Shown here: piece after piece, positions 4,118-10,598 of the stretch
Position numbering within the stretch: position 1 is the first letter of the stretch
Layout: every line of letters begins with the position of its first letter
Assembly (NCBI GenBank): GCA_963737155.1
Contig: CAVTRN010000002.1
Span: 320,001 to 384,000 of the forward strand
DNA: 64,000 nucleotides
Direction: 5' to 3'
From: Nitrospirota bacterium
GTDB lineage: Bacteria > Nitrospirota > UBA9217
Made by a program: the position numbers and the translations under genes
Notes under the pieces: generated by a model
Told to the model about the DNA's origin: nothing
Seen by the model: the letters and a program-made list of their open reading frames with translations, nothing else
Databases searched by the model: none

Positions 4118-4443
4118 TATTAAAACCGTTTACATGTGTATTTTTAGAACAATAGTGTCTCAACACAGTGCATGTAGAGCGTGAGTTTGATCGTCGTTGA
4201 CGCATTTTCCAAGTAGCATACCGCAATGGTTTTTTTCACGCGCCGGTGCGAGCTAGGTGTAATTGAGAACCGCTTGGTTCTTAAAGAATTATAATTACTG
4301 ATAGTAACCTGAAATGCATATTTCATTGAGGACGATGGATGGACTTAACGGTGGGACCTTGATTCAAAAATGTCTTGCCATCATTCTGCCAATGGGCTAT
4401 AGTTACTGCTCAAAATACTAATCTTCTTCACTGGAGGGCATTT

Positions 4444-4731
4444 ATGGCAAAGGCAATGACGAAATCCCAATTGATAGCAAAGGTAGCGGAGAAGGCATCA
4501 CTTACGAAGAAGGCAGCAGGTGAGATATTAGACTTCATCGCTGAAACAGCTTACAAAGAAGCTAAGAACTCGTTCACGATACCCGGACTCGGCAAGCTCG
4601 TTCTCGTTCAGCGCAAAGCTCGGATGGGAAGAAATCCTGCCACAGGCGAGACTATCAAGATAAAGGCAAAGAAGGTAGTCAAATTTCGAGTAGCCAAAGC
4701 CGCCAAGGATGCGATCCTCGGCACAAAGTAA
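4444..4731 (+). CDS. hup: HU family DNA-binding protein (intact copy)
   Basis: MTKSQLI...IPGLGKL...RKARMGRNPATGETIKIKAKKVVKF. GGAGG RBS. Confidence 0.92.
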   Translation: MAKAMTKSQLIAKVAEKASLTKKAAGEILDFIAETAYKEAKNSFTIPGLGKLVLVQRKARMGRNPATGETIKIKAKKVVKFRVAKAAKDAILGTK

Positions 4732-5058: not shown

Positions 5059-5550
5059 ATGTCAACAGACGATAAAGGAGCTATTGGGCCGGACGCTTTG
5101 ACTGGCGAATATGTTGCGATCGATTATAAGGCGCTTGGGTCCAAAATCAAGCACGTTCGGGATACTGTTACTCAGGCGGACTTCGCCAAAAAATTCGGCA
5201 TAACGCGGGCTGAGGTCAGCAAGATCGAGCGCGGTGAAGTCCGGCCGACTGCCGAGCTGCTTTATAATATTTGCTTGAAGTATCATCTCAGCCTTGAGTG
5301 GATATTGTCCGGTCACGAGCCCGCACCTGAGTCCGCACCTGAGTCCGCACAGGAAGAACTTTTTAAAGAAGAGACTGTAACAGCTGCGCTGGTCAAAGAG
5401 GATCCATCGACAGCGTGCGCAATGCCAATTCTTGAAATAACCGATATAATCGAATGGTTCAGGCTGCACCCGGAAGACCTGTGCTTGGTCAATAAGATGA
5501 TTCAGGGCAAGAAACTTATGCTGGATTCAATGAAGGAGCTGGAGAAATAA
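5059..5550 (+). CDS. XRE-family helix-turn-helix regulator
   Basis: TQADFAKKFGITRAEVSKIERGEVRP ... LSLEWIL. AGGAGG RBS. 12-bp tandem duplication encoding (PESA)2. Confidence 0.85.
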   Translation: MSTDDKGAIGPDALTGEYVAIDYKALGSKIKHVRDTVTQADFAKKFGITRAEVSKIERGEVRPTAELLYNICLKYHLSLEWILSGHEPAPESAPESAQEELFKEETVTAALVKEDPSTACAMPILEITDIIEWFRLHPEDLCLVNKMIQGKKLMLDSMKELEK

Positions 5551-5884: not shown

Positions 5885-6210
5885 CTTGAAATTTATTTAG
5901 AAGCTTCTCTGATTTCCTCTACACGAACTTGATCCGCTCGGCAACCGAGAGACCTTTCGTTTCTTCGTAATGCTGGTCCGTGATCTTGCGAACCATTTCA
6001 CCTGTTTTAACCGGCATGGGCATGTACCTCCCGTAGGGAATAAATGGAAACCGGCTTGTACCCAATCGCGATGTTCACGGCATAGAATGCTTGTATTTTT
6101 TCAAAATGAACAATATTCTTGAAGTTCCAGCTTACGACCCTGTCCGCACCCGCGACAGTAGCGATTGCAATATGCCTGGCATCATCACGATCGTTGCGCG
6201 TCAATATACG
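5885..6210 (-). pseudogene. Decayed PIN-toxin / small partner gene pair
   Basis: C-terminal PIN-like DARHIAIATVAGADRVVSWNFKNIVH with no N-terminus. Downstream EMVRKITDQHYEETKGLS..ERIKFV* is interrupted by a stop. Confidence 0.55.
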
Positions 6211-6325
6211 GTGTTTGTCACTTTTTAATGTGAGTCTCACGCTCGCAGAAGCACATCACGGGCAAGTTACCCTCAAATTGATCAAAATATCAGCTCGAAC
6301 TGGTTTTGATCTGTTCAGTCCGCGC

Positions 6326-7180
6326 TCACGGCGTATAGTACTTGCCGTTTACTTCATCTCCAATGATAGCAAAATTCGCCGTTGATGTTTCAAGTGGATC
6401 GGATTTCCATGAAAAACCGATCGATGGAACTTCAACCGAGGCCTCAAGCTGAGCTATGGCTTTGAAGCCATCGACACGGAATTGTTTCTGAGAATCGTCG
6501 TAGCTGAACTTCTCGTTTGTTGCTTTCCACACGATACGCAAGTCCATTCTAGCAGGTATTGTTTCTGCCTTGAACTGCGGCCATTTTGGCTGGTCTATTA
6601 TTTCAATCCCTTTCATTTGCAGTACCGCCGAACGTCCATCATTGCTAAAAGTGACTCCTCCTTCGGCTACAGGCACAACCCAGTAAAGGCCACACGGTCC
6701 GACCGGAGGATGAAAATCATGCACCTGATTCGCAGGGGCCAACTGCCCCTTGAAGAGGGTCACTCATATATGTGCGAACGTCCCATTTTGAGCGGTTCTC
6801 CCCGTGTAGTACTCACCCTGCATGATATCGTTATCCGTTGTAGGATTTCCAAAGGCAAGGCGATTGCCCTTGTTATCAGTGCCCATGCCTCTAAAATCTG
6901 CACATCGGGCGACCTTGCCTTTGAAATGATAAATGTGCGATGGCTCCGTGGTAGGACCAGCTGGCTGGTTGTGACTGCCGTTCTTATCAAGCCAAGGAAT
7001 GGGAAAGGGGTAATTACTTCCATCGTAAACGAAAGGTTCTTTTTCGACTTCGTTATGTTTACCCGTCGCATCAGCATGGTTTGGAATTTGAAGCGCTGAC
7101 GCTGCCGCAAGTATCGAGCCAGAAATAAGAAAACGTCGCCTACTGAACTCGAAATTGGATGACAAAAATTCTTTTTTCAT
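6326..7180 (-). CDS. Tat-exported hypothetical protein with in-frame TGA at 6766-6764; candidate selenoprotein of about 284 aa (otherwise two abutting ORFs)
   Basis: SRRRFL twin-arginine signal with ADA cleavage site. ORFs 6764-7180 and 6326-6763 are in one frame, separated only by TGA. A SECIS-like hairpin follows. Confidence 0.7.
6734..6750 (-). promoter_or_regulatory. Putative bacterial SECIS element
   Basis: mRNA UGA-GUGACCCUCUUCA-AGGGGC-AGUUG-GCCCCU: 6-bp perfect stem, 5-nt loop with G then U at loop positions 2-3, 19 nt between UGA and the loop. Confidence 0.6.
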
Positions 7181-7257
7181 GTTAACCTCCCTTTCTGTAG
7201 TCCTCGTTAGAAGAAGCTTCTGCCAAAGTAATGCAAATTAGGCTTTTTGATTTCAGT

Positions 7258-7423: not shown

Positions 7424-8254
7424 CTATTCCGCAAGTGCAACGGTGGTTTCGGATTCCTGGGAACGCATCTGCTCTTCCATTACCATATGGGTGATTACCT
7501 GCTGAAGACTGAGGAACCATGGTGAGGTCGTATCTCGTGAATGAGGAAATCTCACTTCAACAATCTTTTTCACCGTGCCTGGCCGATTGGTCATGACGAC
7601 CACACGGTCAGCGAGGTAAATGGATTCCTGTATGCTGTGGGTGACGAAGATGATGGTCTTTTTGAATTCCATCCAGATGCGAAGGAGTTCATCCTGCAGC
7701 ATACTGCGAGTCAAGGCATCCAATGCGCCGAAAGGTTCATCCATTAGCATCATCGGTGAATCGAGCGCGAGGGCTCGGGCAAAGGCTACCCGCTGACGCA
7801 TTCCCCCCGACAAGTCCTTAGGATACCGGTCACGGAAATCCGAGAGTTGCAGCTTGTCCAAAAACGCATCGACCTTTAACCTGACAGCGGCCTTCGGCAA
7901 GCCTTTGATCTTCAATCCAAATGCCACATTCTCATCCACATTCATCCATGGGAACAGCGCATACTCCTGAAAAACCATGGCGCGGTCCGGCCCCGGAGCG
8001 GCGACCTCTTTGTTATTGGCGATCAGTCTTCCTGACGTAGGGAGAGAGAAACCGGCAATGGCATTTAAAAGGGTCGATTTGCCGCAACCTGATGGTCCGA
8101 GGATGCAGATGAACTCACCACGGTGGATGTCCAGATTGAAATCCTTAAGCGCAACAATTTCCCGGCCTTCGGAACGATAAACCTTGTTGACTTGCTCGAT
8201 TCTGACGATTGGCTCGTTAGCAGCGCTCATTCTTCCAGTTAACTCCGTAAGCAT
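7424..8254 (-). CDS. NitT/TauT (sulfonate/nitrate/taurine-type) ABC transporter ATP-binding protein
   Basis: Walker A GPSGCGKST, signature LSGGMRQR, Walker B LMDEPFGALD. Confidence 0.93.
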   Translation of the reverse strand: MLTELTGRMSAANEPIVRIEQVNKVYRSEGREIVALKDFNLDIHRGEFICILGPSGCGKSTLLNAIAGFSLPTSGRLIANNKEVAAPGPDRAMVFQEYALFPWMNVDENVAFGLKIKGLPKAAVRLKVDAFLDKLQLSDFRDRYPKDLSGGMRQRVAFARALALDSPMMLMDEPFGALDALTRSMLQDELLRIWMEFKKTIIFVTHSIQESIYLADRVVVMTNRPGTVKKIVEVRFPHSRDTTSPWFLSLQQVITHMVMEEQMRSQESETTVALAE

Positions 8255-8260
8255 GTTCTT

Positions 8261-9109
8261 CTATTCGCCCGTTTCAATGCTCCGACGCCAGCGAAGCAAG
8301 TAATTGTTGATCCGGCTCATGACCGTGTCGATGGCCAAACCCAACATGCCGATAGTAATCATCCCGGCAATAATCTTGTCTGACCAGAAATATTCCCGAG
8401 CCTCAATGATCCGGTAACCCAGACCGTTATTGACTGCAATCATTTCGGCAACAATTACGCAGATAAATGCCACGCCAATTCCTACGCGCAGTCCGGTAAG
8501 AATTTGGGGCATCGCTGCTGGTACGATGACCCGGACAAAAAGCGTCTTTTTCCCGGCCCCCAGGTTCTGCGCTGCGCGTATGTAGATCGCATCTACATTC
8601 CGGACTCCGGATATTGTGTTCATGAGCACAGGAAAGAATGCGCCGAGACTGATGAGAAAATATGCCGGCGGGTTCCCCAACCCAAACCAGAGTATTGAAA
8701 GAGGAACGTATGCAATGGGGGGGATCGGCCTCAAAATCTGTATGAGGGGATTAAAAAGACGATGGACTCTTTCGAAGTTCCCCATCAGAAGTCCCAGGGG
8801 CAGTGCCAGACCGGCGCCGATAAGGAAACCGATAAGCACCCGGAGAAAAGTTGCAAACAGATCGCTGGGAAGCTCTCCTGAAAATATCCATACTAAATAG
8901 GTCATCTGTTTAGGATCGAAAGGCTCAAGAGGGCGGGCATACGCTATCCATCGTGAAAACACCTGAGTTGGGGCAGGAAGGGCCTGAGGATTGAACACTT
9001 GATTTCGGGACAGCAATTCCCAAACGACAAGAATTCCAACAGGAATGATGGCCGACTGAATGATCTGCCTGATCATTTTTGCCACCGATTGTTTTTGTTT
9101 ACCTGGCAT
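8261..9109 (-). CDS. NitT/TauT ABC transporter permease
   Basis: RPIPPIAY, EAA-type loop IRAAQNLGA, multiple TM segments. Confidence 0.93.
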   Translation of the reverse strand: MPGKQKQSVAKMIRQIIQSAIIPVGILVVWELLSRNQVFNPQALPAPTQVFSRWIAYARPLEPFDPKQMTYLVWIFSGELPSDLFATFLRVLIGFLIGAGLALPLGLLMGNFERVHRLFNPLIQILRPIPPIAYVPLSILWFGLGNPPAYFLISLGAFFPVLMNTISGVRNVDAIYIRAAQNLGAGKKTLFVRVIVPAAMPQILTGLRVGIGVAFICVIVAEMIAVNNGLGYRIIEAREYFWSDKIIAGMITIGMLGLAIDTVMSRINNYLLRWRRSIETGE

Positions 9110-10067
9110 TTAGCTCCTTCTTGGCTTTATCGAGTAAATCGAGCCTGACGTAGTCCTTTGCAACGGGTGGTTTCGTCATTTTCGCAATACCATACTTGAC
9201 CATCATGTCTGTCGAAATTTGTACCTGTGCAAGTGTGACATCATAGGTAAATGGCGAATTTTCGATGGCTTGTCGGTAGTCTTCGCTCGAGAGCTGACCC
9301 TTGAACATCTTATCCCGAACATACTGTTCAGCAACATCCGGATGTTCTATAAAATATTTTGTTGCTTCAACGAAGCATTTCATAACCCGTTCAGCAACAT
9401 CACGCCGCGTGTTATACATTTTTTCAGTCATGATCAGAGTTCGAACCGGCTCTCCAAGCGGCGTATCATAGGGTTTGATGATCTCAACGCCATAACCCTT
9501 GCTGATGGCCTGCGAGGACTGGGGTTCCGATTGACTAATGGCGTCAACGTTCCGGGAGAGAAGAGCCTGGTTAAGGTCGGCATAGGCCATGTACTCGATC
9601 TGTACATCCTTGCCCGGGTTCACAGAATAGGTCAAATTATATTTCCCTAATTCGGCAAGAAGGACCAGTTCCTGAGCGCCACCACGGGGCACTCCTACCT
9701 TTTTCCCCTTGAGATCGGCGATTGAATGCCATTTCATGTTGGAGCGTCCGACTATCCGCGCACCTCCACGGGCAAATCCTGCCACGATATAGATCGGGAC
9801 ACCTGCAGCACGGGCCGCAATTGCACCGTCGATAGCACTCGCCGCGATGTCAATGTCACCTGCGATGATTGCCGGCATAATATCGATCCCCTTGGGAAAT
9901 ATGCGCTCCTCTATCCTGAGATTGTACTTAGGCGCGATCTCCTTCATATACGATACAGTCCCGTAATGGGCGAACTTGAGGTTTCCGAGGCGGACCAAAT
10001 CTTCAGCATAAACTGATGAACTACACCAGACCATTACCCACAGAAATATTGCCGCAATCTTTTTCAT
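9099..10067 (-). CDS. NitT/TauT ABC transporter substrate-binding protein (SsuA/TauA-like)
   Basis: Signal peptide MKKIAAIF..VYA. SIADLKGKKVGV motif. GGAGG RBS. Confidence 0.9.
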   Translation of the reverse strand: MKKIAAIFLWVMVWCSSSVYAEDLVRLGNLKFAHYGTVSYMKEIAPKYNLRIEERIFPKGIDIMPAIIAGDIDIAASAIDGAIAARAAGVPIYIVAGFARGGARIVGRSNMKWHSIADLKGKKVGVPRGGAQELVLLAELGKYNLTYSVNPGKDVQIEYMAYADLNQALLSRNVDAISQSEPQSSQAISKGYGVEIIKPYDTPLGEPVRTLIMTEKMYNTRRDVAERVMKCFVEATKYFIEHPDVAEQYVRDKMFKGQLSSEDYRQAIENSPFTYDVTLAQVQISTDMMVKYGIAKMTKPPVAKDYVRLDLLDKAKKELNAR

Positions 10068-10598
10068 CGAATGCCTCCTCGCCATGGCCGTCTCCCTAAC
10101 TCATCGGGAATCCCGCTTTTTCCCAGCCCTCTACCCCTTCGTTGAAAACCCTGACATTCAGAAAGCCCTTTCCGATATATTCTGCCACCCGAGCGGCGGC
10201 ACTCGCCTTTTTTGTTTAGGGTCAATAGAATATAATTTCCTGCCCTTTAGGCCACGAATTGATCTTGTCTCTAAATTCTGTTATGAAATAGCCCGTCAAG
10301 ATATGTCGTTTATTGATAAGCCCTATTTCTAGTATAACACGAGGAGAAATTGGGAGTATTCGGCCGCCTTCAAATTTGCCCTCCTCGGTGTGATTTTTAA
10401 AAAGTTATCAATTTTCATTATCAGTTTTTTCGCCTAATTGACAGATCATTTTTCAGTGGATTCTTGACAACGGGTTTTCATGATATATAGTCATAATAGA
10501 CTCGGTTTTCACAATCTTTTAGATAAATCAATGAACGTCGTTTTTACTACCCACTGTAACTGAAGTGCTCGGCAGGACGGGATCTGTAATCTATTTAG

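Follow-up and report, generated by a model that had tools for sequence, protein, structure and literature searches.

An in-frame UGA codon and a conserved SECIS-like hairpin point to a family of Tat-exported selenoproteins in Nitrospirota and other bacteria

The window analyzed here is a stretch of 64,000 nucleotides (nt) from a Nitrospirota bacterium (GenBank assembly GCA_963737155.1, contig CAVTRN010000002.1, positions 320,001 to 384,000), and positions are given as window positions throughout. On its minus strand, at 6326-7180, two open reading frames (ORFs) in the same frame are separated by a single TGA and together constitute a candidate gene for an exported selenoprotein. ORF1 (7180-6764; coding part 7180-6767) starts with the ATG at 7180-7178 and encodes 138 amino acids (aa). 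Its N terminus reads M-K-K-E-F-L-S-S-N-F-E-F-S-R-R-R-F-L-I-S-G-S-I-L-A-A-A-S-A-L..., and it closes with ...GTFAHI-TGA, the TGA being located at 6766-6764. ORF2 (6763-6326) has GTG as its first codon and encodes 145 aa (VTLFKG...HDFHPPVGPCGLYW...); its last codon ends at 6329 and is followed by the terminal TGA stop at 6328-6326. The read-through product of both ORFs comprises 284 residues (284 codons including the UGA), ends with ...NGKYYTP, and carries the recoded codon, putatively read as selenocysteine (Sec, U), at residue 139 within the motif F-A-H-I-U-V-T-L-F. A Shine-Dalgarno sequence, GGAGG, was read from the sequence 5 nt upstream of the ATG of ORF1 (7186-7190), whereas no such run was present in the 15 nt upstream of the GTG of ORF2 (TTCGCACATATATGA). 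Downstream of the UGA, the mRNA can form a perfect 6-bp hairpin at 6750-6734 (5′ arm AGGGGC, 6750-6745; loop AGUUG, 6744-6740; 3′ arm GCCCCU, 6739-6734). An initial model reading of the letters and ORF translations, made without database searches (the sequence-only reading), had described a twin-arginine ORF ending at this TGA with the frame open for 145 further codons, a GTG without a Shine-Dalgarno sequence, and the stem beginning 13 nt past the UGA; all of this was confirmed by reading the minus strand. Its wider proposal of one exported protein of about 284 aa with Sec at residue 139 is supported by the codon, hairpin, and host machinery comparisons described below.

Homologous DNA loci were collected from three sources. 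One scan of the GTDB contigs (one genome per species) yielded 246 confirmed relatives, and one scan of JGI metagenome contigs yielded at least 523; 80 relatives were retained from each scan, and a search of 61 related genomes added 3 loci. The resulting set of 163 loci contained duplicates and comprised 153 unique loci, or 154 with the window. The codon opposite residue 139 was read by a script that walked along each tblastn alignment. This aligned codon, whose identity the sequence-only reading had proposed as a check, was TGA in 162 of the 163 loci and GGG in the remaining one. No TGG was found in DNA, and the TAA, TAG, or out-of-frame junctions that the same reading had named as signs of two genes were not seen among the 163 loci. 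The loci were derived from metagenome-assembled genomes titled Nitrospirota, Acidobacteriota, "delta proteobacterium," Syntrophorhabdales, Syntrophaceae, Desulfomonilaceae, Verrucomicrobia, Myxococcaceae, and Betaproteobacteria. A single internal TGA was present in 3 of 4 matches from the 61 related genomes and in all 6 matches from a sample of 401 Acidobacteriota genomes. The lone locus without TGA (L005; G019:C2:562876-563694), from the same taxonomic family as the window's genome, carried GGG (Gly) in an intact frame with 52% identity. It lacked the hairpin (-3.9 kcal/mol) and may represent a Sec-independent derivative with altered or lost activity. A distant homologue from an Acidobacteriota genome (L185; 79 bits), which belongs to a clade of approximately 30% identity, again carried TGA at the same aligned position (...AFALI-U-LDVF...).

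We then compared the hairpin with the bacterial selenocysteine insertion sequence (bSECIS) model. The model as given in the legend of Fig. 2 of PMC13188914 comprises an apical loop of 3 to 9 nt, an upper stem of 4 to 16 bp, and a minimum free energy (MFE) of at most -7.5 kcal/mol. The same legend also places a G at one of loop positions 1 and 2, in most cases as N1-G-[G|U]-N-N2 with pairing of N1 and N2, and sets a distance of 16 to 37 nt from the UGA to the apical loop. In the window, 13 nt separate the UGA from the stem and 19 nt separate it from the loop, and the 19-nt element folds at -11.7 kcal/mol. The family hairpin has a stem of 7 to 8 bp and a loop of 3 to 5 nt; the window hairpin, with 6 bp and a 5-nt loop, likewise lies within the bSECIS limits. 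The spacing between the UGA and the loop was 19 to 20 nt in the main clade and 16 to 17 nt in L185, both within the bSECIS range. An MFE of -7.5 kcal/mol or lower was calculated for 149 of the 154 unique loci (median, -11.65); five failed, the weakest of them with -4.7. Covariation was evaluated in a gap-free alignment of 135 nonidentical 51-nt segments against 500 column shuffles. In the 8-pair helix, 89.8% of the cells were paired compared to 79.9% in the shuffles (reached in 0/500), and pairing did not exceed 54.3% when the 3′ partner was slid. Cells in which both partners had changed numbered 163 versus 65.5 in the shuffles (again reached in 0/500). The covarying pairs included 23-39 (AU 58, GC 53), 27-35 (GC 55, AU 54, UA 5), and 29-33 (AU 66, CG 46). 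Some of these switches replace the residue encoded by one arm (Ala/Val/Asp; Gln/Arg) and are matched by a synonymous change on the opposite arm, and the third-position entropy fell to 1.07 bits within the hairpin codons. The most common loops were AGGCU (55), CGGCG (40), and AGUUG (18). Loop position 2 was G in all 135 rows, position 3 was G (112) or U (23), and N1 and N2 could pair in 112 of 134 distinct rows. A scan of positions 6500-7000 against Rfam at an E value of ≤10 returned only chance rows.

The hairpin of L185 is of unrelated sequence (UUGACC-AGUCU-GGUCAA), starts 10 nt past the UGA, and again presents an A-G-U loop. The selD gene of the window's own genome (G000:C1:1242985-1243899) also contains an in-frame TGA (...SHGAG-U-ACKLGP...), and its hairpin begins 12 nt downstream of that codon and carries the loop GGU at +20. 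This is the same geometry and provides a positive control from within the genome. Three independent controls agree, namely, the loss of the hairpin in L005, the separate hairpin of L185, and the geometry of selD. The covarying hairpin that the sequence-only reading had called for was found, and the conserved structure, as predicted from the alignment, fits a SECIS element on every criterion applied.

Next to this, the arrangement in the window could be read as two translationally coupled genes, one for a 138-aa Tat (twin-arginine translocation)-signal protein and one for a 145-aa protein that starts from the GTG adjoining the stop. The GTG following the TGA agrees with such a reading, as does the fact that gene callers list both halves as separate proteins. 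However, among the 154 unique loci, the codon directly 3′ of the TGA was GTG or TTG in just 9, whereas it was CTN in 140, and we therefore excluded a second coupled gene. In 44 loci, an in-frame start codon is not reached until 50 codons downstream of the TGA, yet the protein is conserved from the first codon past the TGA onward. The two sides of the TGA were also alike in codon-position entropy, with the third position the most variable on either side: the entropies (positions 1/2/3) were 0.38/0.31/1.41 bits upstream and 0.49/0.33/1.49 bits downstream, and the frequency of the majority residue was 0.84 and 0.85, respectively. Furthermore, the GTG lacks a Shine-Dalgarno sequence, a separate signal peptide is missing from the second half, both halves build one predicted barrel (pLDDT [predicted local distance difference test] of 93.8; see below), and every junction was in frame, with neither TAA nor TAG at the site. 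Two coupled genes are thus a very improbable explanation of the locus. RNA libraries were inspected for contigs that bridge the junction. In four metatranscriptome runs from one peat study, one contig per run, derived from a relative at 90 to 95% identity, spanned it (6251-6841, 6518-7240, 6552-6812, and 6443-6869). The runs held 0.10 to 0.16 of the sampled words, which says nothing firm on habitat or expression level. Among 40 listed differences between the contigs and the window (30 more exist beyond these), those at 6761 and 6767 flank the codon at 6764-6766. The bridging contigs are weakly compatible with a single transcript.

The protein databases gave a different picture of residue 139. 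A word-indexed protein search found 102 relatives, mostly covering one half, and a hidden Markov model search of 1.84 billion representatives found 652 proteins at an E value of ≤0.001, overwhelmingly halves that end or start at the TGA. The suspicion of the sequence-only reading that annotation pipelines split the family into two hypothetical genes was thereby borne out. Seven full-length public proteins show Trp at residue 139 (P0002 to P0006, P0009, and P0010), and one shows Gly. Such W or G residues would be expected if the gene were a pseudogene in which a Trp (TGG) or Gly (GGA) codon had simply mutated to TGA. However, 162 of 163 loci, from several phyla, retain the TGA, both halves are under purifying selection, and TGG is absent from the DNA loci. 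One of the Trp entries could be traced: P0004 shows W at the Sec site and also at the true stop, running 31 residues past the C terminus of the family, and a DNA relative whose product is 93% identical to it (L074; 3720-4643) has TGA at both sites. The W of P0004 is therefore explained by gene calling with TGA translated as W. No exact DNA match was found among the fetched loci for any of the 10 W-containing proteins tried, and matching by the nearest relative worked for P0004 only. The W of P0106, P0159, and P0174 and the C of P0209 are known from protein records. A pseudogene is, in our judgment, extremely improbable.

The same translated records raise the question of whether TGA is a sense codon in the genetic code of the hosts, since some gene callers did translate such contigs with TGA as W. 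The terminal stops of the family genes in the 154 unique loci were TGA in 67, TAG in 54, and TAA in 32; because genes end at TGA in 67 loci, TGA is therefore an ordinary stop in these organisms. In addition, no internal TGA interrupts selA or selB in the window's genome, and the homologue matches hold exactly one internal TGA. An altered code has a practically negligible probability. Taken together, public protein sets hold the family in three wrong forms, i.e., truncated halves, mistranslations with TGA as W, and read-through of the true stop. Entries of the second kind mask both the Sec codon and the real C terminus, and correction of the family records would mend hundreds of annotations.

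The sequence-only reading had also suggested a check for selA, selB, selC, and selD. The window's genome (4.84 Mb, 2 contigs, 100% complete) contains selA (603.6 bits), an adjacent selB (374.3 bits), and selD (370.5 bits), all over their cutoffs, as well as tRNA-Sec (65 bits versus a gathering score of 47). The search for the Tat system was directed at tatC and found it with 204.3 bits compared to a cutoff of 132.7. Among 53 other host genomes, in which selA was the sole Sec gene searched for, selA scored over the cutoff in 50. In one of the host genomes, the selA match (G088:C2:680616-681986; 522 bits) itself contains one in-frame TGA, which could stem from an error in sequencing, mark a pseudogene, or encode a SelA that contains Sec. 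When Acidobacteriota were sampled evenly, the family was present in 6 of 401 genomes, all of which had one TGA and selA; this tally includes three genomes flagged as unpublished (G159, G262, and G134).

DNA alone cannot tell which residue is inserted at a UGA, and it could be argued that UGA-139 is read through without Sec, by near-cognate insertion of Trp, Cys, or Arg, or that it mostly terminates translation, with the hairpin setting how much short product is made relative to the long one. A hairpin could in principle slow the ribosome, and 2 of the 53 hosts gave no selA match. On the other hand, the loop is of the SelB type (N1-G-[G/U]-N-N2), all 135 rows having the G, the hairpin's spacing of 19 to 20 nt matches that of the selD element in the same genome, and the full Sec machinery is present. 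Moreover, a sense codon would suffice for such a protein, yet just 1 of the 163 loci has one, and there the hairpin is lost. We consider read-through without Sec quite unlikely.

The mature part and the export signal were then investigated at the protein level. The Tat signal peptide comprises residues 1 to 38 (7180-7067, minus strand), with S-R-R-R-F-L, a motif of the S/T-R-R-x-F-L-K type, as residues 13 to 18 (7144-7127), followed by a hydrophobic stretch (ISGSILAAASAL) and the A-x-A site A36-D37-A38, after which cleavage was placed by eye. The RR pair was invariant in 25 of 25 rows of a 25-member alignment. The Tat-signal models PF10518 (9 of 25 members; best E value, 0.0031) and TIGR01409 (4 of 25; best E value, 0.026) gave matches that were all weak, and the window protein itself scored under neither of them. 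From the motif layout, we infer Tat export to the periplasm with cleavage near Ala38. Beyond this, Pfam and NCBIfam held no family for the window protein at an E value of ≤1, and the 25 members gave only Tat-signal models at ≤10. A profile search of PDB sequences returned only two chance Titin rows. AlphaFold reached a pLDDT of 72.7 with the 25-row alignment; when the mature sequence was modeled from 85 rows, the pLDDT was 93.8 and the predicted template modeling score (pTM) was 0.90. This latter model shows a closed meander β-barrel over residues ~84 to 280, preceded by a Pro-rich, very conserved segment (PIPWLDKNGSHNQPAGP); this conserved N-terminal segment was also confident in the 85-row model. 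Foldseek found nothing in the PDB at an E value of ≤0.001 with either model, and VIA-align against representatives found only generic barrels (best Z scores of 9.2 and 8.9; 6 to 10% identity). As modeled, the barrel is generic and has no specific structural relative.

The 85-sequence alignment includes the distant clade and the non-Sec variants, and its column numbers are converted into residue numbers by adding 46. Polar residues that were invariant in all 85 sequences are His154, Asp196, Glu276, and Asn278 (columns H108, D150, E230, and N232), and column G233 was also invariant. The respective minus-strand codons are located at 6719-6721 for His154, at 6595-6593 for Asp196, and at 6347-6355 for Glu276-Val277-Asn278. 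His154, which is kept in both clades and in the non-Sec variants, is a candidate for the catalytic partner of Sec139. In the main clade, the invariant set further includes His70, His85, Cys93, His137, and His157. Cys93, in the motif V-A-R-C (codon at 6902-6904), is invariant in the 25-row alignment and is Ala in the distant clade.

Several observations weigh against a selenoprotein at this locus or limit what can be said of it. Cys homologues, which are usual for selenoproteins, are nearly missing, the one form being P0209 from the distant clade, which is known only as a protein record. The remaining non-Sec homologues carry Gly, Ser, or Glu at residue 139, and support from Cys/Sec pairs is thus lacking; these residues fit a lost or changed function. 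The 76-nt stretch of the window folded no better than dinucleotide shuffles (z = -0.34). It is conservation, i.e., the TGA in 162 of 163 loci and the covarying helix, and not the folding of a single sequence that lifts the hairpin above chance. Three of the 53 hosts were below the selA cutoff, one with a fragmented selA and two without a match (one of these being just 1.8 Mb in size). Since 297 of the 401 sampled Acidobacteriota have selA anyway, selA in six of six carriers would be expected approximately 1 time in 6; this association is a weak test, and we set it aside as evidence. The RNA contigs may include DNA carry-over and are mute on translation. The functional part finds no support from fold relatives, conserved neighbors, or family models. 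Finally, SelB-dependent insertion of Sec at residue 139 is a reading drawn from sequence comparison. With these points taken into account, we regard it as highly probable from the sequence comparisons that ORF1 and ORF2 form a single gene encoding a precursor of about 284 residues, which would receive Sec139 through the SECIS element and be exported by Tat and which may use the Sec as its reactive center.

Accepting this explanation, the ribosome would reach UGA-139, and the hairpin 13 nt downstream would work as a bacterial SECIS that recruits SelB-GTP-Sec-tRNA(Sec), so that selenocysteine would be inserted and translation would go on for 145 codons. The twin-arginine signal would direct the protein, already folded, to the periplasm by way of TatABC and would be cleaved off near Ala38. 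The mature protein of ~246 residues would form the closed meander β-barrel behind the Pro-rich segment, with Sec139 at a β-turn in an H-x-U motif as the reactive center of a stand-alone periplasmic enzyme or redox protein. This last step is the weakest. It is speculative that Sec139 serves as a nucleophile or redox center working with His154, Asp196, Glu276, and Asn278, and the His and Cys residues specific to the main clade could contribute a selenenyl-sulfide couple (Sec139-Cys93) or a metal site. That Sec is almost never replaced by Cys suggests a chemistry that needs selenium. Extending this, one may tentatively imagine a new kind of periplasmic enzyme that strictly requires selenium, in Nitrospirota, Acidobacteriota, and Desulfobacterota of peat and soil: a small barrel with Sec139 and the four invariant polar residues, perhaps with metal binding by the main-clade His/Cys set, carrying out chemistry beyond the reach of cysteine and without operon partners. 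If true, obligate-selenium chemistry would explain the near absence of Cys forms. Exported, almost without Cys counterparts, and without a recognizable fold relative, the protein is a promising candidate for novel selenium chemistry among bacteria of soil and peat, for which the selenium supply may then matter in a periplasmic process. The family is not rare, as the 246 GTDB stretches and at least 523 metagenome contigs that encode a relative indicate, and it is widespread in soil and peat bacteria.

The surroundings of the gene were also inspected. Scans for promoters and terminators around it were uninformative. Upstream lies an ABC (ATP-binding cassette) transporter operon (7424-10085, minus strand) with an NMT1-type binding protein, a BPD_transp_1 permease, and an ABC ATPase. 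The 243 nt between this operon and the selenoprotein gene contain a GC-rich inverted repeat (GGCAGC...GCTGCC). Just downstream, a 77-aa ORF without a Pfam match is located at 6007-6240 (minus strand), followed by a divergent gene for an HTH_3 (XRE-type) regulator at 5059-5550 (plus strand) and an HU-type DNA-binding gene at 4375-4731; the downstream genes have no visible tie to the selenoprotein. When the flanking ORFs of 80 genome loci were clustered, no conserved operon was found, the most common neighbor family occurring in 7 of 80. The ABC transporter, which is not kept beside these homologues, was rejected as a functional context. Directly upstream of the distant homologue, at a single locus (L185:17-1780, plus strand), a 587-aa ORF has a twin-arginine motif of its own (VTRRTFVKG). 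It displays motifs (P-T-H-P-x-Y-P-T-G-H and G-I-H-F-R) that, by eye, we take to be PAP2/vanadium-haloperoxidase-like signatures; it had no Pfam match at an E value of ≤0.01.

The sequence-only reading had recognized no thioredoxin, formate dehydrogenase, or hydrogenase context and had suggested an undescribed selenoprotein family, and the comparison with known families is in line with this. A 2026 catalogue lists 119 prokaryotic selenoprotein families (PMC13188914, Table 1), and BSepDB compiled 111 families from earlier reports. None of the 119 families, as they are given in that table, fits the present protein, and the Pfam and NCBIfam models were silent in a scan outside of which a few CDD- or PANTHER-only families lie. 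A description of the family was not found in the literature, although supplementary tables (BSepDB Table S2 and deep-Sep Table S2) could list it. Hence, the protein family appears to be undescribed, while the recoding mechanism (UGA, bSECIS, and SelB) is the textbook one. The authors of deep-Sep state that the method may miss selenoproteins without Cys homologues (PMC12013277). The present family, nearly devoid of such homologues, would be a concrete case of this blind spot of predictors built on Cys/Sec pairs.

Among characterized systems, the formate dehydrogenase alpha subunit (FdhA/FdnG), the classic Tat-exported selenoprotein of bacteria, resembles the present protein in a UGA whose decoding relies on a hairpin immediately 3′, in a twin-arginine signal, and in a Sec near a His. 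The motif of FdhA in the catalogue is UHxP, whereas that of the present protein is H-x-U. FdhA is a large enzyme that contains molybdopterin and Fe-S, is covered by Pfam and TIGRFAM models, and has many Cys forms; in contrast, the present protein is a predicted 246-residue β-barrel without such domains, with almost no Cys forms, and without conserved partner genes. The selD gene of the same genome shares the in-frame TGA, the hairpin 12 to 13 nt further on, and a loop ~19 to 20 nt past the UGA with G followed by G or U; however, its protein is unrelated, and selD has abundant Cys-type homologues. The catalogue families GOS_B/GOS_C, DG/DW/DF, and OS_HP3 to OS_HP5 (PMC13188914, Table 1; PMC12013277), as listed there, are domain-less, have a conserved TGA and a bSECIS, and carry no assigned function. 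They were likewise predicted from the conserved TGA and bSECIS, but they have NCBIfam models and were found via Cys/Sec pairs, and none of them scored on the present protein at an E value of ≤10. With regard to the fold, the 8- to 10-stranded barrels of NspA (1p4t), PagL (2erv), and the C-terminal domains of the Diels-Alderases Fsa2 and CghA (7e5t and 6kbc) share the up-and-down topology over residues ~84 to 280. These matches (Z scores of 8.0 to 9.2, root mean square deviations of 4.1 to 5.9 Å over 128 to 142 residues, and 6 to 10% identity) fall within a Z range that the tool calls a common arrangement; the outer membrane barrels specifically gave 8.5 to 9.2 at 6 to 8% identity. Outer membrane barrels of the OmpX/NspA/PagL type have a Sec-type (secretory) signal, a membrane-embedded barrel, and a C-terminal aromatic β-signal; the present protein has a Tat signal and ends with ...NGKYYTP. 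We did not file it among the outer membrane barrels, and it is probably a soluble Tat substrate.

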